Shown piece by piece: positions 24,199 through 58,300 of a stretch of DNA of 64,000 nt. The notes beneath the pieces were generated by a model, which did no database searches, was not told where the DNA came from, and saw nothing but the letters and a program-made list of their open reading frames with translations. This stretch comes from a virus (lineage: Duplodnaviria; Caudoviricetes). The stretch lies in the IMG/VR virus record IMGVR_UViG_3300019703_000001, positions 21,079-85,078 of that record; one strand, written 5' to 3'. Positions within the stretch are counted from its first letter, which is position 1, and each line of letters begins with the position of its first letter. A program made the translations under genes and the position numbers.

Positions 24199-24223
24199 AA
24201 GCCCCTTCGGGGGCCTTTACTTT
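24199..24223 (+). terminator. Intrinsic terminator
   Basis: GCCCC-TTCG-GGGGC followed by a T-rich tract. Confidence 0.7.
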
Positions 24224-24248
24224 TAAACCAATAAAGGAGAATAATTTT

Positions 24249-24452: not shown

Positions 24453-24456
24453 TATT

Positions 24457-24486
24457 AAAGCCCCCTAAGCAGGGGCTTTGTTTTTT
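24457..24486. terminator. Bidirectional terminator
   Basis: AAAGCCCC-7-GGGGCTTT between convergent genes. Confidence 0.75.
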
Positions 24487-28082: not shown

Positions 28083-28152
28083 GTAGAGGCTCCTGATATG
28101 TATTTTTTTTATTCTGATACACATATTTTTTTTGTCAATAACAAATTTATTG

Positions 28153-28181
28153 TTGACAAGGATATGACAAGAATATATATT
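28153..28181 (+). promoter_or_regulatory. Sigma70-like promoter (cassette B)
   Basis: TTGACA-17-TATATT; spacer contains ATATGACAAG. Confidence 0.8.
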
Positions 28182-28209
28182 GTTTTTATATTAAACAAGG
28201 GGAAAAACT

Positions 28210-28662
28210 ATGCAAACATATTTTACTGACCTTAATGTAGTCTATTCATTTAAAAATTTGGACAACAAAAGACTTGCGGGGCAGCGCCGGGAATTATGCC
28301 AATTGGTTAATTATTTGCTATTACACCCGGATAGAACCGGCAGTTATGCAAATCACACAGTCGTCCGCATGTGGCGGGGATATGAGTCATATCTGGTAAA
28401 GGTTTATATGAAACAAATAATAACCGAATGGGAGAACAGGGGATATAATAATATCAAGATTTTAGAGTATTACAATGATTGCATTAAATTAGTCAAAAAC
28501 AAACCTGTAATTCGTCCTGAGTGGTTAGATGAAGAAATGATTACAATGTTCAAATCAAAACTCATTAGCAAGAATCCTGAATATTATCAAAAGTTATGGC
28601 CCGACGTTCCATCAGATATTGAGTTCATTTGGCCGGTTGCTGAATTAAGCAAAAAAAATTGA
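28210..28662 (+). CDS. denV: Pyrimidine-dimer DNA glycosylase / T4 endonuclease V family
   Basis: LDNKRL.GQRRE..Q, H..V.MWRGYE, EW..RGY and P.WL motifs. Confidence 0.8.
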   Translation: MQTYFTDLNVVYSFKNLDNKRLAGQRRELCQLVNYLLLHPDRTGSYANHTVVRMWRGYESYLVKVYMKQIITEWENRGYNNIKILEYYNDCIKLVKNKPVIRPEWLDEEMITMFKSKLISKNPEYYQKLWPDVPSDIEFIWPVAELSKKN

Positions 28663-28690
28663 TTTTTTTTAAAAAAAATAGAGAAAAGAC

Positions 28691-28719
28691 TTGACAATGG
28701 CAAGATAAGTTGTTATATT
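28691..28719 (+). promoter_or_regulatory. Sigma70-like promoter (cassette C)
   Basis: TTGACA-17-TATATT; spacer contains GCAAGATAAG. Confidence 0.85.
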
Positions 28720-28759
28720 GTTAGTATACTTAATAACAAAAACAAACAGGAGACTAATT

Positions 28760-28948
28760 ATGAACGCAAATTTAACTCAATCACAAAAATTCGTAAAAGA
28801 TCAACTAAGACATTCAGCCTCAATTGATGCTCCGATAGAATTTCATAGAAACGCCATGAAATGGAGTGAAAATTATTTAAGAGAAGTATCAAAAAAATTA
28901 GGCGGATTTTTTTATGTGAAAAAAGATAAAGCTTATTTTTCAATATAA
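28760..28948 (+). CDS. Hypothetical protein
   Basis: ATG 28760 behind CAGGAG. Confidence 0.7.
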   Translation: MNANLTQSQKFVKDQLRHSASIDAPIEFHRNAMKWSENYLREVSKKLGGFFYVKKDKAYFSI

Positions 28949-29022
28949 TTTTTAACCCCTACACACGGCCCCTTCCGGGGGCCTTATGTAAGCGTTAAAA
29001 ATTAATTTAAAATAAAAGGAGA

Positions 29023-29220
29023 ATGCATATGACATCGGAAATACTACAGACAATAGTTGAACATTGGGAAAAAGCCTCAAAAGAAACTTTGATTATTTCA
29101 GTTGTTGCCTATGGAGAATTTTTAAGATTAAAAGGACTCAATGAAGAGTTTGTGGAATTTTTTCGAGGCATAAATGAGGAAGCCAAAACTCTAAAAGCTC
29201 AAGAGACGAAAAAACACTAA
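29023..29220 (+). CDS. Hypothetical protein
   Basis: AAGGAG RBS at the end of cassette repeat copy 2. Confidence 0.7.
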   Translation: MHMTSEILQTIVEHWEKASKETLIISVVAYGEFLRLKGLNEEFVEFFRGINEEAKTLKAQETKKH

Positions 29221-29380
29221 TCCCTTCTAAGTGCCCGGCTAAACCGGGTATTTAAAAGGGATTAACCCTTTATGCCACGGCAGACCTTTGGCTCACGTGG
29301 TAACATCAAACAGATATAGCAGGGCGGTGAACTTCTTTGCTAGTTCTTCGCCGCCCTGCGATTTTTTCAGGAGGTTAATT

Positions 29381-29665
29381 ATGCAAAATGCACATATACA
29401 AAATTTGACCCGTGAAGAAAAGATCGAAAAAGCCGCAAAAAGAGCAAGATTGGTTTTGAACAAACACCATAACGGCAAAATAACAGGCATGGATTGTGTC
29501 ATTGTGGAAACCCGAATAAATGGAAGAAAGCCCTTTTTCCATATGCGCTTTTTTAGGCCAAATAACTACAGACTAAAAATATGGGACAAAAACCTATATG
29601 AATGTGAAAGTCAAAATTTGTTCAGATTAGAAGATTATGAAGAAAAAAATATTGACAAAAGATAA
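29381..29665 (+). CDS. Hypothetical 94-aa protein behind a structured leader
   Basis: AGGAGG RBS and ATG at 29381. The track start (29288) lies within the hairpin-rich leader. Confidence 0.7.
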   Translation: MQNAHIQNLTREEKIEKAAKRARLVLNKHHNGKITGMDCVIVETRINGRKPFFHMRFFRPNNYRLKIWDKNLYECESQNLFRLEDYEEKNIDKR

Positions 29666-29771
29666 GATTGAAACAACTATGTCTTATGTTTTTGCATAAT
29701 TTAACCTCCTTTAAAATTTAAGTTTCATTACAAAAAAGGGAGGCAGGTTATAGGTTCCTGTCTCCCTTTTT
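29652..29771 (+). ncRNA. Candidate antisense sRNA 1 (promoter, anti-RBS seed, terminator)
   Basis: TTGACA-17-AACTAT at 29652-29680; 29690-29710 is complementary to 29369-29388; hairpin terminator at 29733-29771. Confidence 0.55.
29733..29771. terminator. Bidirectional terminator
   Basis: AAAAAGGGAGGCAGG-9-CCTGTCTCCCTTTTT. Confidence 0.85.
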
Positions 29772-29774
29772 GCT

Positions 29775-31766
29775 TTAAAAAGCAATTTGCGTACTGCCTT
29801 CTTTTAACCATTTTCTGAGCTTCTTTGTGTTGGTCTGTTTTATTGCCCCCAAACCTTTCCAACCTTTTTGATAATTTGCCAAATATGCCGCCCTCGCTTC
29901 TTCAATATCTTTAAATCCAAGCATTATTTTATGCTCACCAAATAGTCCCGAAACAGGATTATTCTGATTTACTACAAAGGCAAGACTTCCGTTTGTGTCA
30001 CCTATAAAACAGTCAATAGGATCAAAATCAGCCCCTTCGGTCCCGGTAATATATCCGTAATGATGTTTCATTCTGGTAATCCACTTTTTACCGTTTTCAT
30101 CAAATCCGAACCTTAAAGACCCTTTCGGGTTTTCTATCCTTATATCAAGACCCTTGAAGACAATTTTACCCTTTTTATAATTGCCTGACTCTTTTTGGGC
30201 TTCGGTCGGTTCCGTATTGACTTTTATTTTATCAAGCTGTGTTTTTAAATCTTTTTCAGGATTAAAGGCTTCTTCTATTGTCTTTAATATTTTAGAGTTT
30301 TTGAGGCTTGAATTGATTGCCGTTCCGCCTGCTTCGGCCCAAGGCTTTAAATTGTAGCCCATATCGTCGATTAAAATACTTTTGTCGTCAATAACATGCT
30401 TATATTTGTCATGACAGAATATTACATCATAAACTCCGAAATTGTCAAGAATCCAATTGATTTTATCCCGTCTACATTCGGGGATCTCATCCATAGGACT
30501 GGTTAAAAATACAATATTATAGTCATCCTTTAAAGCTTCGACAAGCTCCGCCCCTTTTTCAAGTACAGGGAGGTTATAAAAGAAATGTGGGACTGTTGAA
30601 ACAAATTGTTTTATAGTAAATGGGTCATCCTTGTCAGCACTTCGATCAAATGCCTGTTTATACCCTGCTCTAAAATCAGCGACAACCCCGTCCATGTCTA
30701 CATATACAATAGGTTTTGACGCAGCTTTCTGCATAGGGGTTTCAAGCATTATTTTATTATTTTTGACCGGGATAATAAAATCTTTGCCGCCTTGTCTATA
30801 TTCGACACCTTTTTCCAATTTAACTATTTTTGCACTATCCGGGACTATTGTATTTTTTACAACCTCTGAGTCTTCTGCGGACCTGACAAACCTACCTGTC
30901 GAAACATCCTGTCGGGGGTGAAAATAATTTTTTATAGCCTTTTGGTTTATTTCCCATGTAGCATTTAAGATCCTGTCTTTTGAAATTCGGTCTAAAATTT
31001 CTTTGAAAAGCGCAAACCCTTTTGGCTCTTCATGCTCTAAAATATTCATAAAGGCATTATTTATAAAAAGGCTTTTCATGTACCATTTGTAGATAGTACA
31101 GAAAAACTCTTCAACGTCTGACCGCTCCCACTCGTATTCATAAATAGCAGACATTTTTAGGTTTTCAAATATACCCTGAAAAGCCTCTTTTTCGTCCGCC
31201 CTGACACAAGTACGCCAAAATAAGTGGCCTATTTCATGGAATACATTGTCAAGGAATCTATCAGGGGAATACATTTCAATGTTAACTCCTGCCAATGCAG
31301 AAACAATTTTTTCTTTTTTCTCCTTTTCGGTTTGCTCCATTAAATTAAGAATTACAGAGTGAGGGGGTAAAAAAGGCTCTCCCACAAAAAGTTTTTGAAG
31401 TATGGGCATTTCAGCAGGGACCGCTTGCCATTTGTCCTGCCCCATTATAATAAATGGATCTCTTTGCTGCTGAACAGGTTCAGGGGATGTTTTGTTTTCT
31501 GATTCAACAATTATTGCATCAGTGGGTCTTTGCAATCTTACCTCATTTCCTTCATCACTTGAAAAAATATCATTTCCTTTATAACCGACGATAAAATGAC
31601 CGGGAATAAAAAAAGGTTTTTTGTCATTTATTAAGGCTTTTTTTAAATCTGAAACTTCATATTTTCCGAAGCTTATTTCAAAATTTTCAAGTTTTCCTTT
31701 GGTCTCTGATAAATTTTTGGAGTGGATTTTCTGGTCAGAAATTTTTTTTATTGTGGTCTTTTCCAT
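29775..31766 (-). CDS. Polyvalent protein: HExxH metallopeptidase-like + NT5C-type HAD nucleotidase + inorganic pyrophosphatase-like domain
   Basis: FHEIGHLFW; VYVDMDGVVADF...FLTSP...ILIDD; IENPKGS.R...HYGYI.GT.GAD.DPIDCF...EHKIMLGF. Confidence 0.82.
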   Translation of the reverse strand: MEKTTIKKISDQKIHSKNLSETKGKLENFEISFGKYEVSDLKKALINDKKPFFIPGHFIVGYKGNDIFSSDEGNEVRLQRPTDAIIVESENKTSPEPVQQQRDPFIIMGQDKWQAVPAEMPILQKLFVGEPFLPPHSVILNLMEQTEKEKKEKIVSALAGVNIEMYSPDRFLDNVFHEIGHLFWRTCVRADEKEAFQGIFENLKMSAIYEYEWERSDVEEFFCTIYKWYMKSLFINNAFMNILEHEEPKGFALFKEILDRISKDRILNATWEINQKAIKNYFHPRQDVSTGRFVRSAEDSEVVKNTIVPDSAKIVKLEKGVEYRQGGKDFIIPVKNNKIMLETPMQKAASKPIVYVDMDGVVADFRAGYKQAFDRSADKDDPFTIKQFVSTVPHFFYNLPVLEKGAELVEALKDDYNIVFLTSPMDEIPECRRDKINWILDNFGVYDVIFCHDKYKHVIDDKSILIDDMGYNLKPWAEAGGTAINSSLKNSKILKTIEEAFNPEKDLKTQLDKIKVNTEPTEAQKESGNYKKGKIVFKGLDIRIENPKGSLRFGFDENGKKWITRMKHHYGYITGTEGADFDPIDCFIGDTNGSLAFVVNQNNPVSGLFGEHKIMLGFKDIEEARAAYLANYQKGWKGLGAIKQTNTKKLRKWLKEGSTQIAF

Positions 31767-31870
31767 TTTTTTTTGCCTTTATAAGGGATATTTTTTTTAT
31801 TTTCGTAAAGATATTTTTTTTGTCAAGGATAAAAAAAATTGATTTTTTTTAAAAAAAAGTGAGAAAAGAC

Positions 31871-31899
31871 TTGACAAAGACAAGATAAGTTTGTATATT
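31871..31899 (+). promoter_or_regulatory. Sigma70-like promoter (cassette D)
   Basis: TTGACA-17-TATATT; spacer contains ACAAGATAAG. Confidence 0.85.
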
Positions 31900-31933
31900 G
31901 TATGTATAACTAAAACAAAACAGGAGACTGATT

Positions 31934-32209
31934 ATGAACGCAACAACAAAAGAAATAAGCTTAGAAGAAATCCAGAAAAGGTATAGTAACTGGGTAACTG
32001 TACAAAGTGCCGAAACAGTTCTTTTTTTAGAAAAGAACTCAACAAGACCCGAACATATGAGGGTTTTAAAGATAGAAATTACTGATGGACATATAACACA
32101 AATTTGGTATTCAGTAGAATCTAAAAGGGATGAAAATCCTCACTGGGTAGCCATGAAAGAATATAAAACAGATAAAGAAGCTGTTTTGGATTGTGTCAAT
32201 TGGTATTAA
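31934..32209 (+). CDS. Hypothetical protein
   Basis: CAGGAG RBS; first gene after the promoter. Confidence 0.75.
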   Translation: MNATTKEISLEEIQKRYSNWVTVQSAETVLFLEKNSTRPEHMRVLKIEITDGHITQIWYSVESKRDENPHWVAMKEYKTDKEAVLDCVNWY

Positions 32210-32288
32210 GATTTTAACCCCTACATTCGGCCCCTCCGGGGGTCTTGTGCAAGCGTTAAAATTAAAATTAAATTTCAGGAGAATCATT

Positions 32289-32435
32289 ATGACACTACAA
32301 CAAAAAGCAAACTTGCGACAACTGGAAATCAGGGAAAATGAAAGGTTACTCAGGGACCTTCCCTATCAAATCAGAATTCGGCCAAAAAGGAAAAAAATAA
32401 ACAGCCTTGAACGTCGAATCATAGCAGCAAAGTAA
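32289..32435 (+). CDS. Small basic hypothetical protein
   Basis: ATG 32289 behind CAGGAGAATCATT of repeat copy 3. Confidence 0.65.
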   Translation: MTLQQKANLRQLEIRENERLLRDLPYQIRIRPKRKKINSLERRIIAAK

Positions 32436-32442
32436 CACAATA

Positions 32443-32471
32443 GGCCCGGACCATAAAAAGTTCGGGCTTTA
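32443..32471. terminator. Bidirectional terminator
   Basis: GCCCGGAC-8-GTTCGGGC between convergent genes. Confidence 0.7.
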
Positions 32472-33248
32472 TTTTTTTGAAAAATCCTTCACAACTTCCT
32501 TTGCAAAATCCCCTATTATCTCACCTATCCGCTTGTTGACATATTTAAGAACCGAAGGGAAAACGGGTTGAGGTGATTTATTCGGATACTCCCACCCTTC
32601 ACTGTTTTCCGTAACAACTCTAAATATACCATACTGAGCTTGAAATTTTTTTGTATTATATTTAGTTAGCCCTGAAACATCCTCTCCGGTTGGCAGTGTT
32701 CCCGCTTTTAATCGGCCCCCTGATTTGACAATTTTATGCATCTCTGTGGTCATTTCTCTTTTACCAAAGTGGCGCGCCATTTTTCCAGAGTCTTCATTTC
32801 GAGGAGTGGCAACAGGGAAAGGAACTATTATATATTTGGTCCCGTCTTTTGAGGTTTTCGCTTTGTCACTTGCTAAAAGAGCGTCCCTGATAGACCATGT
32901 ATCAACACCCTTTTCAACCATCATTGCAAACATTTCAAAAGGCTTTTTACTTCCTTTAGAATCAATTTTAGATTCATCAAGGTAAACCTCCCCCTCAATT
33001 CCTGCATATTCGTAGGCTATAGCCTGAGCGTATTTACGGCCCCATCCCCCGGAGTTATGAGCATCTGTGCGCCATTTGTCAGCAGCTTCACGGGTAATTA
33101 GCCCTACAATGCTAGGCATAGACTTGTCAACCACTTCAACAAGTTCAGCGTAAAGGGCCTCAGAAGCAACCATCCCTGCGGCCTCCAGACCATCAAGAAT
33201 TGACTCTAAAATTGTTTCATCTTCTATATCAAAAATCATAATAATCAT
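32469..33248 (-). CDS. Putative neck/virion morphogenesis protein
   Basis: YIIVPF...FRVVTENS.GW.YP pattern, as in large-myophage neck proteins. Likely start at 33239. Confidence 0.6.
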   Translation of the reverse strand: MIIMIFDIEDETILESILDGLEAAGMVASEALYAELVEVVDKSMPSIVGLITREAADKWRTDAHNSGGWGRKYAQAIAYEYAGIEGEVYLDESKIDSKGSKKPFEMFAMMVEKGVDTWSIRDALLASDKAKTSKDGTKYIIVPFPVATPRNEDSGKMARHFGKREMTTEMHKIVKSGGRLKAGTLPTGEDVSGLTKYNTKKFQAQYGIFRVVTENSEGWEYPNKSPQPVFPSVLKYVNKRIGEIIGDFAKEVVKDFSKK

Positions 33249-33350
33249 ACTTTAAAAAAGTGAAAAAAATTTGTCAAATACAAAAAAAATGCAGAAAAGA
33301 CTTGACAAAGACAAGACAAGTTGTTATATTGTATGTATAACTAAAACAAA
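33248..33350. repeat. ~100 bp divergent-promoter repeat (second copy 36998-37100; related copies at 23190-23285 and 31815-31918)
   Basis: Near-identical copies with about 4 mismatches, all in the promoter spacer. Contains minus-strand TTGACA-17-TAAAGT and plus-strand TTGACA-17-TATATT (33302-33330; 37052-37080). Confidence 0.92.
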
Positions 33351-33362
33351 AGGAGAATGATT

Positions 33363-33614
33363 ATGAGCGCAAATAACACTGTTACTGAAATCAATAAAGC
33401 TCAAAGGGCGGGAGTAAAAGCTTTTAATAATGGCAAGGATCGTGCACCTGCTTTGAATCAAGCTTTTTTAAAAGAGGCTTGTTCTTCTAAAATTAATACA
33501 ATAGCATTATTAGATGCATATCTTCACGGATGGGACATTGCCAACTTGGCTAATGGAGAAACAAATCAAGACTTGCCAAGTGTTATTGAGCTTAAAAGAA
33601 TATTAAGTTTTTAA
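33363..33614 (+). CDS. Hypothetical protein
   Basis: AGGAGAATGATT RBS. Confidence 0.75.
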   Translation: MSANNTVTEINKAQRAGVKAFNNGKDRAPALNQAFLKEACSSKINTIALLDAYLHGWDIANLANGETNQDLPSVIELKRILSF

Positions 33615-33677
33615 CCCCTACACCCGGCCCCTCCGGGGGCCTCTAAATTACAAAAAAACAATTTCAGGAGAAATAAA

Positions 33678-34337
33678 ATGACACAAACAAATCAAGATAA
33701 TACTTACAAAAAATATTGCCCAAACGTCTTTGTTGCACAATGCCCCGAAAAACACGAAAAGGGTGACTTGATTATCCTTAAAACCAAATATGGAAAAGAG
33801 AATGAGTGTGAAGTACATAACTTAGTAGCTGAAAAGAATGGCTTTTATTACTATTCTATCACCCGAACCGATGGTTTTAATAGTCAGGAGAGAGCAAAAA
33901 GAAGGGCTGAACGACTAAACGGTTGGGCTGATTCTGCTGACAAAAGAAGTGCCGAATGGATGGAAAAGAGTCAAGAAGGAAAAGACTTTTTATCCCTTGC
34001 TGAACCTATTAAAGTCGGTCATCATAGCGAAAAAAGACACCGGGCTTTAATTGATCGCAATTGGAACAGGATGGGCAATGCTGTAAAAGAACAGGATAAG
34101 GCGGAAGCCTACAGGGACCGGATGGAATATTGGGAAAGCATGGCAAAAAAGATTGACTTATCAATGCCTGAAAGTCTGGAATTTTTCCAAATTCAGCTTG
34201 AAGAAGCTATCGAATACCACAAGGGATTAAAAGACGGCAGCATTAAACGTGAACACTCTTACTCCCTTACTTATGCAAAAAAAAGAGTAAACGAACTCAA
34301 GAAAAAATGTAAAACAGCTGAGATTCTATGGGCGTAA
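33678..34337 (+). CDS. DUF3560-like protein
   Basis: RAKRRAERL..WA.SA, EPIKVGHHSEKRHR and M..AV...KAE.Y..R motifs. Confidence 0.85.
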   Translation: MTQTNQDNTYKKYCPNVFVAQCPEKHEKGDLIILKTKYGKENECEVHNLVAEKNGFYYYSITRTDGFNSQERAKRRAERLNGWADSADKRSAEWMEKSQEGKDFLSLAEPIKVGHHSEKRHRALIDRNWNRMGNAVKEQDKAEAYRDRMEYWESMAKKIDLSMPESLEFFQIQLEEAIEYHKGLKDGSIKREHSYSLTYAKKRVNELKKKCKTAEILWA

Positions 34338-34343
34338 TCAATT

Positions 34344-34363
34344 AGCCCCTTCGGGGGCTTTTA
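34344..34363 (+). terminator. Intrinsic terminator
   Basis: AGCCCC-TTCG-GGGGCT-TTT. Confidence 0.75.
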
Positions 34364-34389
34364 CTTAAAATAAAATAAAAGGACACAAA

Positions 34390-34644
34390 ATGAACAAAAT
34401 ATCACAAACAACATTAAAAGAAGTCGTAACCGAACTTGAAAAATCTTTTGAGAAATGGCCTTTCAGAGAAAATATTTTCAAACAATTGGCCGTATTGACA
34501 GAAGAAGCCGGAGAATTATCACAAGCCATTTTACAGTATCAGGATGAGGGCCTCGCCCCCGAACACGCAAGATTTGAGGCTATTCAAACAGCTGCAATGG
34601 CTTTAAAAATGATAATGTATATTGATAAAAAAGGACTGGAATAA
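34390..34644 (+). CDS. MazG-like NTP pyrophosphohydrolase domain protein
   Basis: LTEEAGELSQAIL...EAIQTAAMAL. Confidence 0.7.
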   Translation: MNKISQTTLKEVVTELEKSFEKWPFRENIFKQLAVLTEEAGELSQAILQYQDEGLAPEHARFEAIQTAAMALKMIMYIDKKGLE

Positions 34645-34645
34645 A

Positions 34646-34888
34646 ATGGAACCCAATAAAGAAGCAGTAAAACAGATAGTACAACAAAGATTATTGACTG
34701 AAATGAAGTTTAATACACCGTTAGAATTTTTACTAAATGTCCAAACCGCTGTAAGAATTCACGGTGAAATAATATTTCAACAAAATGAACTTCTTTGGTC
34801 TTGTCAGTATTTACAAAGACTGTCAAAAAAGTATCACTATTTAAGTATAAATAAAATACCAAAAACTAATAAAATTCGTTTTTGGTAA
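34646..34888 (+). CDS. Hypothetical protein
   Basis: ATG 34646 behind AAGGA. Confidence 0.6.
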   Translation: MEPNKEAVKQIVQQRLLTEMKFNTPLEFLLNVQTAVRIHGEIIFQQNELLWSCQYLQRLSKKYHYLSINKIPKTNKIRFW

Positions 34889-34909
34889 TAAAATAAAAGG
34901 AGAATAATT

Positions 34910-35314
34910 ATGGTAATACCAAAAGAAGGGACTTATAAGGTTGTACCGGTGTTTTATGCTTTTCAAGACGGTCTTAGAGGTAGGGGGTTAATCGATTCAA
35001 CCATTTTGATCCCATTAAAAGATTTTGAAAGGTATATAAAAGCAGGTGATTTGTGGCTTGTCGTAAAAGATGAACTTGATTTTTTCTTAAATCTGCCTAT
35101 TATGACAAGAAATTACAAAGATTTTGATCTTAAGGATGACATGACCGATATGTTTAAAAAGCTAATTGAAATATCAGGTATTGAGTTTGGAGAAGACGCC
35201 GGGGGATGGGATGAGCTTTTTGAGGCATTGAATGGAAAGATTTTTGAATTGATTGTGACCTATAAAGAGATAGGGACATTTATTGAAGTTGAATATGATA
35301 TTAACAAAATTTAA
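34910..35314 (+). CDS. Hypothetical protein
   Basis: AAGGAGAATAATT-ATG. Confidence 0.75.
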   Translation: MVIPKEGTYKVVPVFYAFQDGLRGRGLIDSTILIPLKDFERYIKAGDLWLVVKDELDFFLNLPIMTRNYKDFDLKDDMTDMFKKLIEISGIEFGEDAGGWDELFEALNGKIFELIVTYKEIGTFIEVEYDINKI

Positions 35315-35331
35315 ACAGAGGGGGTTAGGTT

Positions 35332-35565
35332 ATGGCAACAAAAACAGATGAAAAGGGACACGCCGCTTGCACTTTTTGCAGGGGATTCCTTGAATATTTC
35401 GACCGTATAGAGTCAGGTAAAAAATATTATTATTGTTTTCACAATTGTTCAGGATCAGGATGCGGCGGTTTTTCTTTTTCGATAAAACACGCCGATGAAA
35501 ATGTTCTACACAAACGCATTAAAGTAGATTGGGACAAGATGCATACTGAATACTTAAAATCTTAA
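35332..35565 (+). CDS. Cys-rich (zinc-ribbon/Lar-like) small protein
   Basis: CTFC ... C..C....C. Confidence 0.6.
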   Translation: MATKTDEKGHAACTFCRGFLEYFDRIESGKKYYYCFHNCSGSGCGGFSFSIKHADENVLHKRIKVDWDKMHTEYLKS

Positions 35566-36992
35566 ACCCGCTTAGCATTTCCAAAAATAGCCTTATAATC
35601 AGTGCTGTTTTTGTCAACAGGGATAGGAAGTTGTGGATTGTTTAACCATTCTTCCTTTTTCTGTTTATATTGCTGAGGCTCCACTGCTTCATAAATATTG
35701 TTATTATATCTCACAAGGCCCGACTCCAAATAAACCGGTTTACGGTCCTCGACTTCCTGCGGTGATTTAAAGCTATAATCAACCTGCTGAGGGATGTATT
35801 TTTCTTTTTTCTGCCTTTCTTCAACCCGGTCAGTTTTTGGATTATACACCTGAGTTTCTAAATTTATGGGGGATAGTGTGGCGACATTGTAGGGATGTGC
35901 CGGAGTACACACCCGCCATTCGTGAACATTTTTTGTTTCCTTAAATCCTATATTATTCTTGCCGGGCCATACGGCTATATCGGTGTTGGGATCTTTTATC
36001 CCCATGCTTTTCAGACTGTCCCTTGTTGTGTCCGTAACTATTTCAGCCGGGACTAACCGAACCAAAGATCCCTGATGAGCCAAGCACCATTTACACGAAC
36101 CGCCTGTAAATACAAAATACTGAGCTCTTGAGGGATCTTTCAGGCTTTCCATAGCCTCATCGATATAACCAGATAATAAACCGGCCTCATAAACACTTGC
36201 TGTTTCAGTTGTGGATATTCTATACCAATTTTTCCGTAATGCCTCAGAGGTATATTTATTGACTAAATTTTGATTCTTTTGAACTTCCCAGTATAAATCA
36301 CTCGCTATTTGAACACTTGTTTTGTTGTTATCAATGCCGGTTTGGATCTGCTGCCTTATAGCTTCTTTAATCTCATTATTTGTTTTAGTAACCTCTGTGG
36401 CTATGTTTGAAAATGAAGTATTTAAAGCTCTTTTTTCTGCGGTCTTGAAGTCATACTGTTTATATACCTGACTGAGAGACTCGGGCATTTTGCCGCCGTA
36501 TTGATCGAACTCCACTTGATACAATGATTTGTTCTTGTAGGGCTTCTTTTCCCGTCTGTAATCAGTCGTCTCTTTGCCTAAAAAGAACCCCTTGACCGCC
36601 ATGTCTTCTGTAATTTTTTCAGTGTTTTTCTTCCAATAATCGTCAATTGTTTTATTGAATTTATCCCACTGCTTAGGGGTTAATGGTTCACCTTTATTAT
36701 ATAGTTTCTTTTCAATTCTAAACTTTGGAATTTTATAATTAAATACTTTTTTAAACTTATCAAAGACGCTTGAAAAAAAGTCTGCTTTCTCTAATTTTCC
36801 GGGTTTATTTTTAGCCAGCCGGTAAGCTTCTTTTGAGGTCAGCCCTAAGTTTATACCTATGCCCACATATATCTCGTTAATGAGTGCGAACATGTAGGCG
36901 TCCCAAAACTCGTTTAATTCCCTGATATATTTGACGTCCTGAACTTCGCCTTTTTGGTGTTTTTCTTCAAATTCTTTGTCTATTGTAGCCAT
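35562..36992 (-). CDS. Head morphogenesis protein (Mu gpF / SPP1 gp7-like)
   Basis: RI..TETAS, C..C, and PAHPYN motifs. Confidence 0.75.
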   Translation of the reverse strand: MATIDKEFEEKHQKGEVQDVKYIRELNEFWDAYMFALINEIYVGIGINLGLTSKEAYRLAKNKPGKLEKADFFSSVFDKFKKVFNYKIPKFRIEKKLYNKGEPLTPKQWDKFNKTIDDYWKKNTEKITEDMAVKGFFLGKETTDYRREKKPYKNKSLYQVEFDQYGGKMPESLSQVYKQYDFKTAEKRALNTSFSNIATEVTKTNNEIKEAIRQQIQTGIDNNKTSVQIASDLYWEVQKNQNLVNKYTSEALRKNWYRISTTETASVYEAGLLSGYIDEAMESLKDPSRAQYFVFTGGSCKWCLAHQGSLVRLVPAEIVTDTTRDSLKSMGIKDPNTDIAVWPGKNNIGFKETKNVHEWRVCTPAHPYNVATLSPINLETQVYNPKTDRVEERQKKEKYIPQQVDYSFKSPQEVEDRKPVYLESGLVRYNNNIYEAVEPQQYKQKKEEWLNNPQLPIPVDKNSTDYKAIFGNAKRV

Positions 36993-37116
36993 GAGATTAC
37001 TTTAAAAAAGTGAAAAAAATTTGTCAAATACAAAAAAAATGCAGAAAAGACTTGACAAAGATAAGATAAGTTTGTATATTGTATGTATAACTAAAACAAA
37101 TTAAAGGAGACTTGCT

Positions 37117-37320
37117 ATGGCTTTACTAACAGTAAAATGCGATTCTTGTGAAACAGGAACCATTGTTTTAAGAGCGAAAGATATTTCTTTCAAAGAAGAA
37201 GAACAAACATACATTTCTACCTATGAATGCCTATGTGATACCTGTGGGAAATCAAAAGAGGATTATGTACTAAAACAAAAAATGCAAAAAATACAAGTTA
37301 AAAAGGAGAATAACCCATGA
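37117..37320 (+). CDS. Zinc-ribbon small protein
   Basis: CDSC ... CDTC; AAGGAG RBS. Confidence 0.7.
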   Translation: MALLTVKCDSCETGTIVLRAKDISFKEEEQTYISTYECLCDTCGKSKEDYVLKQKMQKIQVKKENNP

Positions 37321-37589
37321 GCAATAATAATTTAATAATTGAAATTGACGGAAAAGAAAAACGTGTAAACCCTATGTTGCAAAGGGTTATAACAGAACCG
37401 GTCCCACTAAATAGCGGAGACTACAACTCTATCGCTGTTAAATTTGATTATTTTGGCAATCCGGAAATTTTGAACGGCTGCGATATAGATAAAAATATAT
37501 TAAAATTAAGTGAAGAAAATAAACTCAAAGTCGCTGAGTTTATGACCCAAAGATGGTCTGAGTATGCAAATAAATTAAAAGGAGAGTGA
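37317..37589 (+). CDS. Hypothetical protein
   Basis: AAGGAG RBS; coupled to the previous gene. Confidence 0.65.
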   Translation: MSNNNLIIEIDGKEKRVNPMLQRVITEPVPLNSGDYNSIAVKFDYFGNPEILNGCDIDKNILKLSEENKLKVAEFMTQRWSEYANKLKGE

Positions 37590-37593
37590 TATT

Positions 37594-37914
37594 ATGGACA
37601 ATTTCGCAACTGCAACAGTAGAGGGATTTGTGGCCTTCTATGATGAGGAAGTAAGAACCACAAAAACAGATAAGAAGATTTTTAATTTCACCCTGATCGT
37701 AGAACACCGACCGGGTGAAGGAATGCCGCCCCAAACGTCTTACATTGATATTGAGGCATGGGAAAAGCTGGCTGAAATAGCCTATGAGAGGATCAGAGAA
37801 AAAATGCCCCTTATGGTTATAGGCCGATTAACACAGGAAAGGTGGGAGGATAAACATGGCGAACCCTGCCAAAGGATTAAAGTAATTGCCCATGACATAA
37901 GACTCAAAAAATAA
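37594..37914 (+). CDS. ssb: Single-stranded DNA-binding protein (no acidic tail)
   Basis: YIDIEAWEKLAE, V.GRL.QERWEDK.G...RIKVIA. Confidence 0.88.
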   Translation: MDNFATATVEGFVAFYDEEVRTTKTDKKIFNFTLIVEHRPGEGMPPQTSYIDIEAWEKLAEIAYERIREKMPLMVIGRLTQERWEDKHGEPCQRIKVIAHDIRLKK

Positions 37915-37920
37915 TCAAAA

Positions 37921-37950
37921 AAAAGCCCTTCTTAACCGGAGGGCTTTTTA
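37921..37950 (+). terminator. Intrinsic terminator
   Basis: AAAAGCCC...GGGCTTTTT. Confidence 0.75.
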
Positions 37951-38009
37951 AATTGTACTTGAAAAAAATCTCTTGTTAGTGCATATTTACATTAACAGGA
38001 GTAAATAAA

Positions 38010-38339
38010 ATGAATATCTTTTCAAACATAGTTATTCAAGGATTTGCTGCAAACACTCCACAAGAACAAAATCATAATAATAAAAAATATTACACATTCT
38101 CTTTAGTCTTACGCATTCAATCTGTTTATAACAATCAATCTTATATAGATGTTGAAACATGGGACAATGATATAGTTAACGACATTCAAATAGGGTCTAA
38201 GCTATGTATAACAGGCAATGTGTCAATTGACAGCATGAAGGGACAAAGCGGGATCGAATATCAGAGAATAAAAATTGTAGCTCATTCAATAAGAAAGGCC
38301 CTCCATGTCAAAGAGGACCTTTTTACTATTCCGGTTTAA
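38010..38339 (+). CDS. ssb: Second, divergent SSB-like OB-fold protein
   Basis: N..VIQG, YIDVETW, G....ITG......RIKIVA. Confidence 0.7.
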   Translation: MNIFSNIVIQGFAANTPQEQNHNNKKYYTFSLVLRIQSVYNNQSYIDVETWDNDIVNDIQIGSKLCITGNVSIDSMKGQSGIEYQRIKIVAHSIRKALHVKEDLFTIPV

Positions 38340-38345
38340 GTCATT

Positions 38346-49901: not shown

Positions 49902-50188
49902 TTTTTTATTCTCCCTATGGTTCCAGTTTTTATTATTGGAATATAAAGACTTCTGAGTAAACTAAAGGTTATAAGCCATCTTTGCAACTTCATTTTAAAT
50001 GAAAAATTAAACAAGGTTAAACTGATAACTATTCCCGGACATGCATTATTATTTACACAAAAATCAAACAAATGAAAAGCAGAGCTACAACAAATTTTAA
50101 TTTGAATCATATTAGGACTATCTAATATTTGAACCTTTATTAATGTAAAATAATACATAAAATTATAAAATCTTTGTTTTAAGTTCAT
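49898..50188 (-). CDS. Hypothetical protein
   Basis: AGGAGAATAATT-ATG. Confidence 0.65.
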   Translation of the reverse strand: MNLKQRFYNFMYYFTLIKVQILDSPNMIQIKICCSSAFHLFDFCVNNNACPGIVISLTLFNFSFKMKLQRWLITFSLLRSLYIPIIKTGTIGRIKK

Positions 50189-50202
50189 AATTATTCTCCT
50201 GA

Positions 50203-50598
50203 TTAGTTTTTGTTAATATCTATTTCACATAAAACATCAATCTTCATGTTTTCGACCTTACAATTGTCCGCTTTGCCGCCTCTAAAATCGGGGTGATCTC
50301 TGAATTCTTTTTTTAAGATCCACTGAATTTCTTTTGTATTTCCGCAATAGGGACAAGTCTGATTGTTGTAACACCCCTCATATGCCCGGCCACAAACAAG
50401 ACAAATTAAGGTAAAGGGATTTCCACCGTCTGCTTTCTCAAGCTCATAAATATATGTATTCACGTTACTCATGTGTTCTTTCATAACTTCCCTTAGAGTT
50501 TCCAAGTTTTCAAAAATTTCTTTTTCAGTCATTTCACCAGAAAAAGCTCTATTAAACAACTCTGCTTTTTCCGCTCGTTTTAAATCCTGATCATCCAC
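50203..50598 (-). CDS. Zinc-ribbon protein (GTG start)
   Basis: GTG 50598 behind AAGGAGAATAATT; CLVC ... CPYC. Confidence 0.65.
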   Translation of the reverse strand: MDDQDLKRAEKAELFNRAFSGEMTEKEIFENLETLREVMKEHMSNVNTYIYELEKADGGNPFTLICLVCGRAYEGCYNNQTCPYCGNTKEIQWILKKEFRDHPDFRGGKADNCKVENMKIDVLCEIDINKN

Positions 50599-50600
50599 AA

Positions 50601-50894
50601 TTATTCTCCTTTGCTGAAACGCAATGTCCCATTGAACCAATTGCCTTTAATCGAATATCTTTTTTTATTTTTGAAAACAAGTTTCAATTCAAACCAATGA
50701 TCATTTGTAAATGATTCATAACTCTCCATACCTATATCATATAATACTTTAAGTAATTCGTCAACTCTTTGATAATGAAGGTTTATGAATTCCCTATGTC
50801 CATCTAAAACCCTCCACAACTTAGGGCTATTGTTTATTGTCAATCTGTTCAATTTGACACTCCTTTCTCTATATACTTTTAAATAATATTGCAT
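50601..50894 (-). CDS. Hypothetical protein (true start probably TTG near 50853)
   Basis: AAGGAG precedes the in-frame TTG. Confidence 0.55.
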   Translation of the reverse strand: MQYYLKVYRERSVKLNRLTINNSPKLWRVLDGHREFINLHYQRVDELLKVLYDIGMESYESFTNDHWFELKLVFKNKKRYSIKGNWFNGTLRFSKGE

Positions 50895-50899
50895 CCTAC

Positions 50900-51048
50900 A
50901 AAAAAATCAGAGGGAGCGACAAACAATAAAAAGGTTGGCCTGTCATGACCGCCGCCCCCTCAAAACTATGATAGGAGTTAAACTATGAAAATGAAAGTTA
51001 AATCAGTAAGTCTTTAAACAATATAATAACTTGTCTTATTTGTGTCAA
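50900..51048 (-). ncRNA. Candidate anti-RBS RNA 2 or structured leader
   Basis: TTGACA-17-TATATT (51048-51020); antisense of AGGAGTTAAACTATGAAAATG; 11-bp stem with long loop, then a T-run. Confidence 0.45.
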
Positions 51049-51077: not shown

Positions 51078-51220
51078 CAAAAAAACCCGGATAAGGGCTT
51101 ATCCGGGTTTTTCCTTTCAGGATTAGAGTGTGTGAAAATTGTATACTGGGTGTAGCTATATAATTATAGGAGAATAATTATTGTCACTTATAATATAACA
51201 AAATTAAATCAAATCGTCAA
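51078..51220 (-). ncRNA. Candidate antisense sRNA 3 (~105 nt)
   Basis: TTGACG-17-TATATT with extended TG; no start codon before the terminator hairpin; 5' hairpin ATAATTAT-TCTCCT-ATAATTAT; perfect terminator at 51081-51112. Confidence 0.7.
51081..51112. terminator. Intrinsic terminator
   Basis: AAAAACCCGGATAAG / CTTATCCGGGTTTTT perfect inverted repeat. Confidence 0.9.
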
Positions 51221-51224
51221 GTCC

Positions 51225-52001
51225 TTATCTTGCTTTTTTTATTTTTTTTATCCTATCCTCTGTAACATCCACCCATGTCCAGCCATAATATTTGTTATCT
51301 TTATCACATCGGCCATTGTCGATGCCTATAAAATTTCTATTGTTTTTAATCGCAGCTATCCCGGTTGATCCTGAACCACAAGTAAAATCAAGGATAGTGT
51401 CTCCGGGTTTAGTATAGGTCTTGACCAAATATTCCATTAAAGCAACAGGTTTTTGTGTATCGTGATAATTTTCTTTCAAAATGTCACGTTTAAACTTTAA
51501 TATTTGAGTAGGGTATCTCAACCCATTGTCTCTGTATTCAAAAACCGGCTTTTTTTGAGAATCGGTCAAAACGCCCATTTTACCGTTTTTAACCTTATTG
51601 CCCCTTTTTGGGCCAGAGTATTCAACCATTTGAGGATCGTAAAAACACTGTTTCTCATAAAAGACAGATATTGTTTCAATAACCTTTCCCGGACGGTTTT
51701 TGACCTGAGCAATATTTGTTAGTCTCTCCTTTTCCCAGTAACAATCGTATTTATACTGACTTAAATTAGATGCTCTTAAAAGACTTGAAAAAGGTTCTTG
51801 TCCAAAAAGTATAACAGGAGTGTTTTTATTTCTTTTCATTTGACTCAATCGGTCCCACATGGGGCCAAAAGGTATAATCACATCCCATAAACACTTAGTG
51901 GTTCCATAAGGAATGTCTGTTATTACAGCGTCAACCCGAATCCCTTCTTTTATCAAAAGATCCATTTGGTCTAATGTGTCGTTAAAAAATAATTTATACA
52001 T
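51225..52001 (-). CDS. DNA methyltransferase, N4/N6 class (beta order)
   Basis: TDIPYG, H.TQKPVAL and ILDF..GSGSTG motifs. Confidence 0.92.
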   Translation of the reverse strand: MYKLFFNDTLDQMDLLIKEGIRVDAVITDIPYGTTKCLWDVIIPFGPMWDRLSQMKRNKNTPVILFGQEPFSSLLRASNLSQYKYDCYWEKERLTNIAQVKNRPGKVIETISVFYEKQCFYDPQMVEYSGPKRGNKVKNGKMGVLTDSQKKPVFEYRDNGLRYPTQILKFKRDILKENYHDTQKPVALMEYLVKTYTKPGDTILDFTCGSGSTGIAAIKNNRNFIGIDNGRCDKDNKYYGWTWVDVTEDRIKKIKKAR

Positions 52002-52031
52002 GAGCTAACAATAAATAAACGCCTTATCTTG

Positions 52032-53441
52032 TCAACTTTTTTTTCGCTGACTTCTCAATAAGTCCCGTTTTTTCTGCTGCTGCTTCTTTTTAACCTCTCT
52101 GAGCTTCTTTCTTTCTTCTTTTTTCACATCAAGGAGCTTTTTCTTTTGATCTGACAAAGTGCCTGATATAGTCCCCGGCTTGCCCTGAGCTCTTGAGAGG
52201 GGTTCCAACGCATACATACAAGCTTTTATCCCATCATCAAAAACATCAACTGGCTTGTTTTCTATAGGCTCCCCGTCTTTATCTTTTTGTAGTTCATAAA
52301 TTTCGACTTCCTGAGCAAGTCGGGGACACTTATCAGGATCAATAATCCACTCCTGAGAGCGAATAAAGTCAATACCCCTTGAAACACTATCCCCGCCCTT
52401 TTTAGCAGGAATAACAGAATAATCCTGCTGCTGCCACTCCTTGATCCTTGATGGTTCAGCACTATCGGCCCTACATAGCTCATGCGGTTTGAGTATATCA
52501 TATTCTCGGTTGGTCTGAATGAACTCCATGTTTGTAGGATTTTTGTAATGCTTATGTTCTTCACCGCCCACCATCAGCTCATTATACGACCACATTTTAC
52601 CATCTTTGAACCCTATCTTTTCTATTACACTGGGGTGTGTGCTTCCAAAGTCCATACCAATATAAATAGCGTCAAAATCTTCTTCTTTATAAAAACACCT
52701 TTGAAGAGAGTAGTTATCAAATATAACACTTCCAAAATTTCCCCATTCCCCAAGGCAGTAGACCCTATAAAACTCGTAATTGGTGTGCTTGTAGCCCTGC
52801 AAAACGGCCTCATAGTTTTCATCAATAAACCTGTTATCAAGGTAGGTGGAATGAACAATAAAAACCTCAGTAGTCTCTTGATAGGACCGTTTGTCAAAAA
52901 ATTCTTTTTTAATCCAATGTTTGTTGGAAATAGGATTGAGCATTAATGTAATCTGAAAAGGCTGAGGGGCCTGCCCCCTGAGCCTTGCGTTTAACTGGTC
53001 AAAATCCCCCTGTGTTATTTCGCTCGCTTCTTCAATTACTACGTCAGTCAGGGGACCGCTGGGAAATGTGATTGATTTCACCTTTTCAATGTCATCAAGG
53101 CCCGTGAGTACTGCCATGTTGCCATTGTGCCGCACCGTGAAACTCATTTCGGTTTTATTTATATTAAAAAGGGTCTCTACCCCTAGACCCCCCTCGCCGT
53201 CCCCTATAAGCTGTTTAAATAGGGCATACGTGGAGATCCTATTAGTGTTTGCCACTTTTCTACAAATTAAATAATTATGCCCCGGTTCAGCAATCATTTT
53301 ATAAATAATTTCTTGAAATTCAAAATAACTTTTCCCGGACCCTGCCCCGCCTACAAGTATTCTGATACGGGATTTATTTTTAAAAAAATCCCAAAATTTT
53401 TCATTCATTATTAAATGAAATTTTCTAAAATCTACTTTCAT
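52032..53441 (-). CDS. terL: Terminase large subunit, PBSX family
   Basis: GGAGSGKS Walker A, VVIEEASE Walker B, LNP coupling motif; nuclease GMDFG..HP, ADSAEP and DD...A..Y. Confidence 0.95.
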   Translation of the reverse strand: MKVDFRKFHLIMNEKFWDFFKNKSRIRILVGGAGSGKSYFEFQEIIYKMIAEPGHNYLICRKVANTNRISTYALFKQLIGDGEGGLGVETLFNINKTEMSFTVRHNGNMAVLTGLDDIEKVKSITFPSGPLTDVVIEEASEITQGDFDQLNARLRGQAPQPFQITLMLNPISNKHWIKKEFFDKRSYQETTEVFIVHSTYLDNRFIDENYEAVLQGYKHTNYEFYRVYCLGEWGNFGSVIFDNYSLQRCFYKEEDFDAIYIGMDFGSTHPSVIEKIGFKDGKMWSYNELMVGGEEHKHYKNPTNMEFIQTNREYDILKPHELCRADSAEPSRIKEWQQQDYSVIPAKKGGDSVSRGIDFIRSQEWIIDPDKCPRLAQEVEIYELQKDKDGEPIENKPVDVFDDGIKACMYALEPLSRAQGKPGTISGTLSDQKKKLLDVKKEERKKLREVKKKQQQKKRDLLRSQRKKS

Positions 53442-53443
53442 GT

Positions 53444-53698
53444 TTAAACTTTAGTCTTTTGCTCCTGCTTATGAATCTTATTCAAATTATTTAAAAAATC
53501 CTGAATATCCTTAAGACATCCCGAATTAAATATGGTATCCGGTTCAGGGAAGAAACAGTATTGAAACCATTGTCCAAACCATTTGGCTTCCCCGATTGTC
53601 TCCCGGCTGTTTAGGGTTTTACATTGGTAAATTACCGTTTTCCCGGTTATCGACTCCCCGTATAGTTTAAAAAATATGTATTTATATTTTGTTTTCAT
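53444..53698 (-). CDS. Hypothetical protein
   Basis: KWFG.W.QYCF.P...TIFN..CL.DI pattern seen in small phage proteins. Confidence 0.6.
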   Translation of the reverse strand: MKTKYKYIFFKLYGESITGKTVIYQCKTLNSRETIGEAKWFGQWFQYCFFPEPDTIFNSGCLKDIQDFLNNLNKIHKQEQKTKV

Positions 53699-54393
53699 TA
53701 GTTAATAGCGGCCCAGTCTCCAAATTTATAAACTGATTCATAACCTGTGTTTAAAGAACCCATATTATCAAGGGAGCTTTTATGATTTTCGTCAAGAAAC
53801 TCATTATCCTTATACGTAGAGTGAACAGTAAAAACAGAATTACCGAAATAACTTGCCTGATTGTATAATTTTGCTTTTATCCAACTTTTCTCATCTTTAT
53901 CAAGAATAGGATTTAAAACAAGTGTTATTTGCCTTAAGTTCCTTCCTGCAAAAAGTACCGCAAATTCTGCTTCCGTCAAGGTATGAGCATCTTCAACTAT
54001 TACATGATTAAAAATAACACATCCAACTCTTCTGCAATTTAAGTAATTTCTAATGTCCGAAAAAGTTTTATATTCCATACAATCAATTATATTATTTCCG
54101 GCCTGAATTGTCAGCGGAATAATATTTGTATCAAATTGACCCTTAACACCCAAAATCTCAGCAGCCATTAAAAGAGACGGCCACGTTGAGACCTTGCTGA
54201 CTCCGGCTTTTCCTTTTTTTACAACAAGACATTTATACTCAGGAATATTTATGGCGTCAAGTATAGCCTTTTGAAAAACTGAAATAGTTTTCCCCGATGC
54301 TGCCCCTCCGACTGAGACAAGTATTTCTTCTTTTGCTTTAAACAGCGGCAAGAATTTTTTGTTAATTTTATCTTCATATTGATTTATATTCAT
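53698..54393 (-). CDS. Terminase-large-subunit ATPase-domain-only paralog
   Basis: GGAASGKT, VIVEDAH, LVLNP, WIK, VHSTYKDNEF and YKFGDW align colinearly with TerL residues ~1-235; no nuclease domain. Confidence 0.85.
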   Translation of the reverse strand: MNINQYEDKINKKFLPLFKAKEEILVSVGGAASGKTISVFQKAILDAINIPEYKCLVVKKGKAGVSKVSTWPSLLMAAEILGVKGQFDTNIIPLTIQAGNNIIDCMEYKTFSDIRNYLNCRRVGCVIFNHVIVEDAHTLTEAEFAVLFAGRNLRQITLVLNPILDKDEKSWIKAKLYNQASYFGNSVFTVHSTYKDNEFLDENHKSSLDNMGSLNTGYESVYKFGDWAAIN

Positions 54394-56838: not shown

Positions 56839-57480
56839 TTATAGTACCTTGTATATTGTTCTCATTTTCGCATTTCGTTTTTGATGCTCGACCTTGATCC
56901 GCTCGCTTGAAATTAACTCCTCAAGCATGGCTTTACGGGCATTTTTCGAAACCTTTGAGGATCTAACCTTCTGAGTCTTTCTTGTTAATTGTGATAATGT
57001 TATCCCTTCCGGACCTGCTGACTTTATAACATCATAAATTTTATTTGTCATAAATTCGGGATCAAACAATTGACTTTGTCCCACTGCCGGTTGTATTATA
57101 AATTTTTTTTTAATTCTTTGAGCTTTTAAAATAACGATATAAATCTTTGTTTCATTCAGTTGTAGGTTGAATTGTGCTTCAAATGCTACGCGCTTTGTGT
57201 TATTAAATTTATCGAAAAATAAATCAACCTCTTTTATGAATTCAGATTGAACCTCTGCAAATTTCATTTTAACACTTGTCCGCATTAAAAAATTAACCTC
57301 AAGTGATACATTGAAAAATTTTTGATTACCAAAATCAAGAAACAGATTTTCGTTATAATTATAATTGCCTTCACTATAATTTTTAAAAAATTCCTGTATA
57401 ATAAAAAGGATAGACTCACCGCCTCTCAGCCGTCTATAATCGGGTTCTGTGACTTGAGGGATTGCCATATTCATGATCAC
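56839..57480 (-). CDS. Protein with C-terminal winged-helix domain
   Basis: IYDVIKSAG..GITLSQL...TQ...LEELI.S.RI pattern. Confidence 0.55.
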   Translation of the reverse strand: MIMNMAIPQVTEPDYRRLRGGESILFIIQEFFKNYSEGNYNYNENLFLDFGNQKFFNVSLEVNFLMRTSVKMKFAEVQSEFIKEVDLFFDKFNNTKRVAFEAQFNLQLNETKIYIVILKAQRIKKKFIIQPAVGQSQLFDPEFMTNKIYDVIKSAGPEGITLSQLTRKTQKVRSSKVSKNARKAMLEELISSERIKVEHQKRNAKMRTIYKVL

Positions 57481-57677
57481 ACCATATTAAATTTTTCAGA
57501 GAATTCTTTTAAGTCATTAGGATGTATAAGCCACTCTCTACCTCCTTTTTTTTGAGCTTTAAGTTTTATGATTTTTTTTTCAGAATTTTTTAATCCGTTT
57601 ACTATCCACAATCTGATTGTGTTTGAAGATACACCTTTTTCGGATGCCGCTTGTTTTGCAGTCAATAAATCGCTCAT
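57477..57677 (-). CDS. Excisionase/MerR-like helix-turn-helix protein
   Basis: LLTAKQAA...GVS..TIR.WI..G, GGREWLI; start set at ATG 57677 behind AAGGA. Confidence 0.8.
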   Translation of the reverse strand: MSDLLTAKQAASEKGVSSNTIRLWIVNGLKNSEKKIIKLKAQKKGGREWLIHPNDLKEFSEKFNMV

Positions 57678-57770: not shown

Positions 57771-58300
57771 ATGTTCAAAATTCACCGCATTCTAAAAATG
57801 TACAAATATTCTGTATGTACATTTTGGCCTATTTTGACAAGTGTATGATAAGTTAAGTACTCTTATATAGTTATTATATATATAGTATTATATATATAAT
57901 AGTATTATATATAAACAGTAATAATATATATGTATATAAATAGACAATAAAAAAAACGATAACAATAAGATGTTCAAAATTCATTGCAAAAAGTGTGAAA
58001 TTTCGACTTTTTTGAGGGGGTACTTTTCCTAGGCGATTTTTGCCCCAGAAAAACACCCCCTCGAAAAACGCGTTTTTTCGCGACTTTTGCAATGAATTTT
58101 GAACATCCTATTGTTTTTATTTTTTTCGCCCTTATGAGAGTTTTTTGAGAAGTGATTGTGATAATATGATTTACTTAAATTTACATTTTTTTGCGTATTG
58201 TCGGAAAAGTCGCCTTGTCTTTCACTTGTCAGACTACATTTTGGAGTTTTAGAGCTTAAAGTTTTATTTAGCTCTAAATAGTTTGCAATGAATTTTGAAC
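57771..58300. other. Candidate replication origin: AT-rich tract, iteron-like repeats and a large inverted repeat
   Basis: GATGTTCAAAATTCATTGCAAAA at 57969-57991 with a perfect inverted copy at 58085-58107; partial copies at 57771 and 58282; TA-rich tract at about 57862-57940. Confidence 0.55.

Follow-up and report, generated by a model that had tools for sequence, protein, structure and literature searches.

The genome of an uncultured phage of ~85 kb contains, between a DNA methyltransferase gene and orphan small genes downstream, a short unit (sRNA 3) in which a hairpin lies between a promoter and a terminator. The question raised by this locus is whether the unit encodes a regulatory RNA and, if so, which genes that RNA controls. 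We analyzed a 64,000-nt window (the whole stretch of DNA considered here) that takes up positions 21079-85078 of a virus record 85,078 bases long, whose completeness is estimated at 99%. An N6/N4 methyltransferase gene (51225-52001) is located directly upstream of the unit and a PBSX-type terminase gene (52032-53441) is also upstream. No DNA similar to this phage was found among GenBank phages; the closest terminases in genome bins are 46-47% identical and come from Spirochaetia and Bacteroidetes bins. The phage encodes a XerD-like tyrosine recombinase outside the 64-kb window; however, a search of the phage genome for an HTH_3 repressor found none, and the recombinase is not enough to class the phage as lysogenic.

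The sigma70-type promoter originally proposed for the unit is present on the minus strand (51192-51220), with its -35 at 51220-51215 separated by a 17-nt spacer from an extended -10 at 51197-51192; the resulting TTGACG-17-TATATT, with extended TG, matches the consensus at 10 of 12 positions. Ten genome positions carry such a promoter, and ~0.2% of strand positions lie equally close behind one. From normal promoter spacing we infer that transcription would start at the G at 51185, which follows a T. This would give a non-coding RNA of ~107 nt (51079-51185, minus strand) that is free of ORFs from promoter to terminator. The intrinsic terminator (51079-51114, minus strand) has a 16-pair stem, in agreement with what had been proposed, and is the first one predicted after the terminase and methyltransferase genes. 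As no terminator is predicted between the terminase and the sRNA unit, late read-through from the terminase/methyltransferase operon would carry the seed too, and would likewise end at this terminator. The statement that the unit lacks ATG, GTG and TTG holds within the RNA but not immediately in front of it, where a GTG at 51187-51185 overlaps the putative +1 and would yield seven codons if transcribed; because the likely +1 is 51185, this GTG falls outside the RNA.

The 5' part of the RNA is predicted to fold into a hairpin (51160-51181, minus strand) of 8 bp, all of them A-U, in which palindromic arms (51181-51174 and 51167-51160) present a UCUCCU anti-SD loop (51173-51168). This stem had been read directly from the sequence, and it is also the fold predicted for the first 36 nt of the sRNA, where it makes up 76% of the ensemble at -3.7 kcal/mol; over the whole RNA the folding z is -4.9, with the terminator contributing most. 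The 5' arm and the loop together make up a 14-nt seed (51168-51181, minus strand). The AAGAY-type tandem box, CAAGATAAG, reported upstream of the -35 at 51224-51232 (minus strand, about -48 to -40) is real, and has 5 copies in the window versus 0.73 expected. In five cassette promoters and both sister units (see below) the AAGAY box lies inside the promoter spacer, whereas here it lies upstream of the -35, a difference in placement which hints that the sRNA unit is perhaps regulated differently. Candidates for binding this tandem box are a 61-aa protein with weak ribbon-helix-helix matches (E~0.02; L001:16626-16811, plus strand) and a 66-aa HTH_17 protein (57477-57677, minus strand).

We defined the start box as the complement of the seed, AGGAGAATAATTAT, and counted it at the AGGAG sites that precede ORFs in the whole genome (n=63). 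Three of these sites are perfect, 10 have at most one deviation and 13 at most two, compared with 0.01, 0.17 and 1.2 expected from pooled spacer composition and 0.06, 0.70 and 3.7 expected under a stricter null, a column shuffle that keeps the position bias of the motif, although independence is overstated here because some box copies share ancestry via duplicated cassette leaders. The original prediction had made target specificity depend on the 14-mer matches exceeding what the RBS consensus would give, and for perfect and near-perfect sites they do so under both nulls. Several box copies lie in duplicated promoter and hairpin cassettes; the three perfect copies, however, are located in unrelated leaders. 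With up to two mismatches allowed, AGGAGAATAATTAT occurs 14 times in the window versus 2.0 expected. All 13 sense copies with at most two deviations are at gene starts, none of them structural, and the sole antisense copy in the genome at this threshold lies within the sRNA unit. No other 9-mer covers as many sites as the nine seed bases after AGGAG (10 sites; runner-up 7). No box site within one deviation was found in the five family relatives scanned, and the perfect 14-mer was found once in an unrelated AT-rich phage (G021). The enrichment over the nulls and the zero count in the five relatives therefore indicate that the box is lineage-specific rather than a generic AT-rich RBS.

Pairings at individual genes were checked base by base. 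The perfect pairing claimed for genes 34910 (34898-34911, plus strand) and 50188 (50187-50200, minus strand) extends over 14 of 14 positions in both, and a third perfect site (genome C1:8592-8605) is one of two further box sites outside the window. Genes 23629 (23617-23630) and 33363 (33351-33364), both on the plus strand, pair over 14 nt with one G-U, and 23324 (23312-23325, plus strand) pairs at 13 of 14 positions, all as proposed. The 12-nt pairing claimed for two other genes applies to 24249 (24235-24248, plus strand; 12 contiguous, 13/14) but not to 50598 (50597-50610, minus strand), which pairs over 14 nt with one G-U. Absent from the earlier target list were the two sites outside the window and four plus-strand genes: 32289 (32277-32290) and 28760 (28748-28761), both at 13/14, and the weaker boxes of 31934 (31922-31935) and 29381 (29369-29382), each with two deviations, the latter start being matched better by the sister unit 29652. 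In the leader of 34910 (34880-34925, plus strand) a stem can form between TTTTGGTA and TACCAAAA, and the start box would then lie entirely within its large loop.

We ranked the ~140 called gene starts by predicted binding to the seed, with the cost of opening the hairpin included; only the seed was folded because cofolding of the whole RNA was noisy, the C-rich linker pairing with G-rich SDs. All six of the strongest predicted binders are box genes, at -13.6 to -14.8 kcal/mol net, and the mean is -11.6 kcal/mol for box genes versus -5.9 kcal/mol for other AGGAG starts, although this ranking is not independent evidence as it partly restates the sequence match. The seed duplex is predicted at -17.7 to -18.9 kcal/mol versus -7.4 to -8.7 kcal/mol for a generic 16S tail, and spans the SD, the spacer and two start-codon bases; the sRNA lacks the extra C that bulge-free pairing to the G of AUG would need. 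Among 16 genomes, the top five targets of the sRNA 3 seed in its own genome rank first. When 14 seeds were compared in this way across 16-17 genomes, the best top-five targets of six of them, that of sRNA 3 included, lay in the seed's own genome, a result that is suggestive only and may be inflated by base composition.

Conservation could be followed in a single close relative, G001, a 53-kb record that is 62% complete and encodes a terminase with 97% identity; protein searches found no relative between ~64% and ~97% protein identity. G001 retains exactly the two-unit tandem block, bounded by the promoter and the second terminator, at 97.7% identity, which is weak evidence when set against the ~95% genome identity. 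It lacks the methyltransferase on one flank of the block and the next downstream gene on the other. The sRNA differs by one linker substitution and one extra tail U and its promoter by one spacer change, and the seed is unchanged, so that the comparison for seed-box covariation comprises a single close relative with an identical seed. A search for the promoter plus seed pattern found only G001 among viral contigs and no match in metagenomes, and one for the cassette-promoter pattern found only G001 and one identical fragment. A second exact match to the hairpin (L014) was put down to chance, since it belongs to an unrelated phage without this promoter. The methyltransferase (51225-52035, minus strand) has its own promoter and, on its flanks, A-runs and AAGAY boxes, which suggests that it may have been gained or lost through short-homology recombination.

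The target sites are less stable. No perfect box was seen in G001 (62% complete), in which gene 34910 is absent at this position and gene 50188 is also missing, its slot being occupied by another gene with a 10-nt match. Gene 50598 has a new, unrelated RBS there (predicted binding -14.2 to -1.8) and the box of 28760 is weakened by three deviations (-10.2 to -5.2); 23324 has more box deviations, yet its predicted binding is not weaker. Genes 23629 (identical) and 32289 keep their boxes, and two newly inserted G001 genes in slots bear boxes with one deviation. This turnover, with new genes bearing boxes, fits control of slots rather than genes, and it weakens any claim of tight co-evolution. The plus-strand cassettes at 23190-38340 are variable gene slots, with leaders shared and recombined between G000 and G001 and the genes behind them swapped.

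We conclude that sRNA 3 is probably a trans-acting RNA that blocks translation of box-marked accessory genes. It has the features of such an RNA, i.e. its own promoter and terminator, no ORF, and an SD-complementary seed that is predicted to be accessible. The earlier proposal of a multi-target silencer of early genes is supported in part: the anatomy, the box statistics and the predicted binding favor a multi-target RNA that blocks RBSs, but the target sites are not stably retained in G001. In the proposed mechanism, host RNA polymerase would transcribe the ~107-nt RNA from 51185 to the terminator, and the weak A-U hairpin would expose UCUCCU to pair first with the AGGAGA Shine-Dalgarno core. 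The 5' arm would then give up its partner and pair instead with the spacer and with the start codon's first two bases, and the resulting 14-bp duplex would shield the SD and start codon from the ribosome. As seen for several slots, the box appears to belong largely to the slot leader, so that swapped-in genes would inherit control; what the sRNA seems to address is a type of gene slot, not particular genes. Its most likely role would be the damping of early or accessory genes late in infection or in a carrier state. That the targets are early is suggested by three things: the cassette promoters are of the sigma70 type, no structural gene is among the targets, and a single distant homologue of 23629 lies directly behind a Mu-like prophage repressor.

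The RNA could be a real anti-RBS RNA and yet have been selected against other targets, i.e. mRNAs of the host or of competing phages, or AGGAG sites broadly; the match to the phage's own box would then exist only because the seed originated as an inverted copy of one of its gene starts. The seed has stayed constant while the phage's own targets turn over in G001, RBS-like 14-20-mers recur among unrelated phages, and neither the tandem sister unit nor 8 of the 14 seeds examined have an outstanding target in their own genome. We nevertheless consider this unlikely, as the seed mirrors the box of this phage at its central consensus rather than any arbitrary member of it, and an RNA in the same cell could hardly escape ten near-perfect phage sites. 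It is less probable that there is no functional RNA, the hairpin being only the operon terminator and the seed a decayed plus-strand gene start or a neutral inverted copy of an RBS. The terminator is indeed the first one predicted after the terminase, the plus strand does read SD-spacer-ATT/TTG, and conservation at ~95% genome identity is weak evidence. However, the unit has a dedicated 10/12 promoter with an extended -10 lying 7 nt before the hairpin, and real RBSs lack the duplicated arm that here puts the anti-SD into a loop. Over 51079-51185 the plus strand has no credible gene and no fitting promoter: its frames are 5 codons long, or start at ATT and run into the methyltransferase, which is absent from G001, and the terminator hairpin would stop plus-strand read-through.

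Two further readings do without pairing to mRNA, and we give each of them very little weight. A protein, either a translational activator or a repressor, might bind the box and be titrated by the sRNA through the palindromic AUAAUUAU arms; a protein of this kind is among the options proposed for the start-associated sequences (SAS) of Cluster K mycobacteriophages. Because the arms are self-complementary the RNA does hold the spacer half of the box twice, and Pope et al., in their treatment of SAS, left both RNA and protein open (PMC3203893), but the loop is the complement of the SD rather than a copy of it, whereas a decoy would display AGGAGA, and no candidate RNA-binding protein was identified. 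Alternatively, the 8-6-8 inverted repeat at 51160-51181 might act as DNA, either as an operator or as a tyrosine-recombinase core, with the boxes serving as crossover points for gene swaps. The XerD-like recombinase would fit, as would the fact that G000/G001 gene swaps break at or near the box. The sense copies, however, have no second arm and keep a strict orientation relative to start codons; two of their deviations would still pair as G-U, and the repeat is flanked by a promoter and a terminator.

The arrangement has a counterpart in the SAS of Cluster K mycobacteriophages, an extended AGGAG-containing box that precedes many non-structural genes in one orientation, has a single opposite-strand copy away from a gene start, and, in the sections of the 2011 and 2024 papers that deal with it, is left without an assigned role (Pope et al. 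2011, PMC3203893; Adephagia 2024, PMC11373665). The box described here is likewise a repeated, oriented, phage-specific extended RBS at the starts of non-structural genes, with a lone reverse-oriented copy away from a gene start. The likeness is one of analogy only, since neither the 13-bp consensus of Cluster K nor its ESAS inverted repeats are matched here, the phage family is another, and the present box is AT-rich and reaches into the start codon. In addition, the hairpin whose loop holds the reverse copy here has a promoter on one side and a terminator on the other, whereas those sections describe no RNA for the SAS reverse copy.

Among phage antisense RNAs, c4 (P1/P7, RF01695) and P22 sar pair at the ribosome-binding region and block translation, c4 displaying its complementary sequences in loops (PMC12197685). 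Each acts on one antirepressor operon that it adjoins or overlaps, whereas sRNA 3 has ~10 dispersed targets. A c4-like operon plan was rejected, as the neighbors are the methyltransferase and orphan genes and no antirepressor family was present among the targets scanned, and so was cis-antisense of the P22 sar type, for want of a credible plus-strand gene or promoter. Searches against Rfam 15 (including C4, IsrB and CyaR) gave no match at gathering score, nor for C4 at E<=5, and the best sub-threshold matches were driven by the terminator; CyaR was rejected at 21 bits versus a cut-off of 47. A type I toxin-antitoxin plan was also rejected for sRNA 3, because its seed matches many dispersed genes over 14 nt, rather than one adjacent small toxin ORF over a long stretch.

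In bacteria, C-rich loops of S. aureus RNAIII and RsaE pair with Shine-Dalgarno sequences. The seed of CyaR similarly pairs with the Shine-Dalgarno of ompX, impeding ribosome binding (PMC11795201). Such anti-SD sRNAs are host-encoded and have targets unrelated in sequence, whereas the targets of sRNA 3 share one box. In T4-type phages, repeated promoter/stem-loop cassettes (PeSL) flank swappable small genes, and in the part of that report concerned with them PeSL are cis DNA modules, with no antisense RNA to their RBS seen (PMC2839356). The duplicated promoter and hairpin cassettes of the present phage, beside swappable genes, resemble PeSL and would explain part of the spread of the box. In our literature searches, whose coverage was incomplete, no description of a phage sRNA directed against a box at multiple targets came to light. 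The T4 RegB endoribonuclease shuts down early mRNAs at GGAG Shine-Dalgarno motifs; it is a protein nuclease and not an RNA.

Two sister units share the general plan. The tandem sister unit (50897-51048, minus strand) has its own promoter, an anti-RBS/anti-start 5' part and a terminator. Its best match in its own genome is the 23629 start, which does not rank above those in other genomes, and exact viral matches to its seed were rejected as RBS-like stretches of unrelated phages. The second sister unit (29652-29771, plus strand) is a putative anti-RBS RNA matching the starts of 29381 and 35332, its predicted pairing with the 35332 start being at least as strong as with the adjacent 29381; it fits a type I toxin-antitoxin plan better than sRNA 3 does. 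In G001 this unit has four pair-preserving terminator substitutions and an invariant 5' part, and the tandem sister unit has a G-U to G-C change (minus strand); these pair-preserving changes support the reading of the units as RNAs. The tandem sister unit may double as an attenuated leader, since in G001 it is not separated from the next operon by a clear promoter. An ENA contig of 91.6 kb (L022), 6.5 kb longer than the 85,078-base record, carries an identical terminase and both tandem units.

Family relatives (54-62% terminase identity) contain promoter-terminator units of 64-75 nt with the reverse complement of SD-spacer-ATG; the opposite strands of these units hold unrelated frames of 14-25 codons. 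Short anti-start units were noted in relatives at L015:4009-4118, G004 C1:6782 and L039:5232, the last of which encodes a 25-aa hydrophobic frame on its opposite strand and is a possible type I toxin-antitoxin. A scan of a viral database for a promoter followed by anti-start and anti-SD gave 33 matches, about 22 of them distinct, and the units with this plan include some from unrelated phages. In about ten, the terminator ends at +54 to +75 and the opposite strand holds frames of just 3-44 codons; of the 9 usable cases from a control motif scan, one had a later terminator. At the preset cut the enrichment of terminators was not significant (7/23 vs 1/9, p=0.39); it looks stronger only under a cut set after the fact (end no later than +80, -8 kcal), at about 10/22 vs 0/9, which is a lead and not proof. 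One unit in an unrelated phage, G018 (L211:2231-2294), matches a gene start of its own genome (G018 C1:10116) over ~28 nt, with a duplex of -34 kcal/mol versus about -21 in other genomes; this is a single striking target. We tentatively suggest, at somewhat less than even probability, that sRNA 3 could be an RNA master repressor of a swappable-gene regulon and a member of a widespread, undescribed class of 'anti-start-box' RNAs.

To our knowledge, the phage antisense RNAs c4, sar and OOP each control a single gene or operon. If sRNA 3 acts as proposed, a dispersed and fast-changing set of accessory genes would be turned down together by one RNA, and incoming genes would join the regulon automatically through the slot box. 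It also makes the SAS question of 2011 testable, i.e. the function of start boxes and of a lone reverse copy, and suggests that many short phage intergenic units may be overlooked regulators.

Elsewhere in the window, a second ORF with a terminase-large-subunit N-terminal (Terminase_3; 231 aa, 53698-54393, minus strand) lies upstream of the full-length terminase. A possible replication origin lies at 57834-58130, a region of AT-rich repeats with promoter-like sites arranged back to back and an inverted repeat of 79 nt (57950-58028 / 58048-58126); similar AT-rich tracts are present in the relatives L019 and L039.
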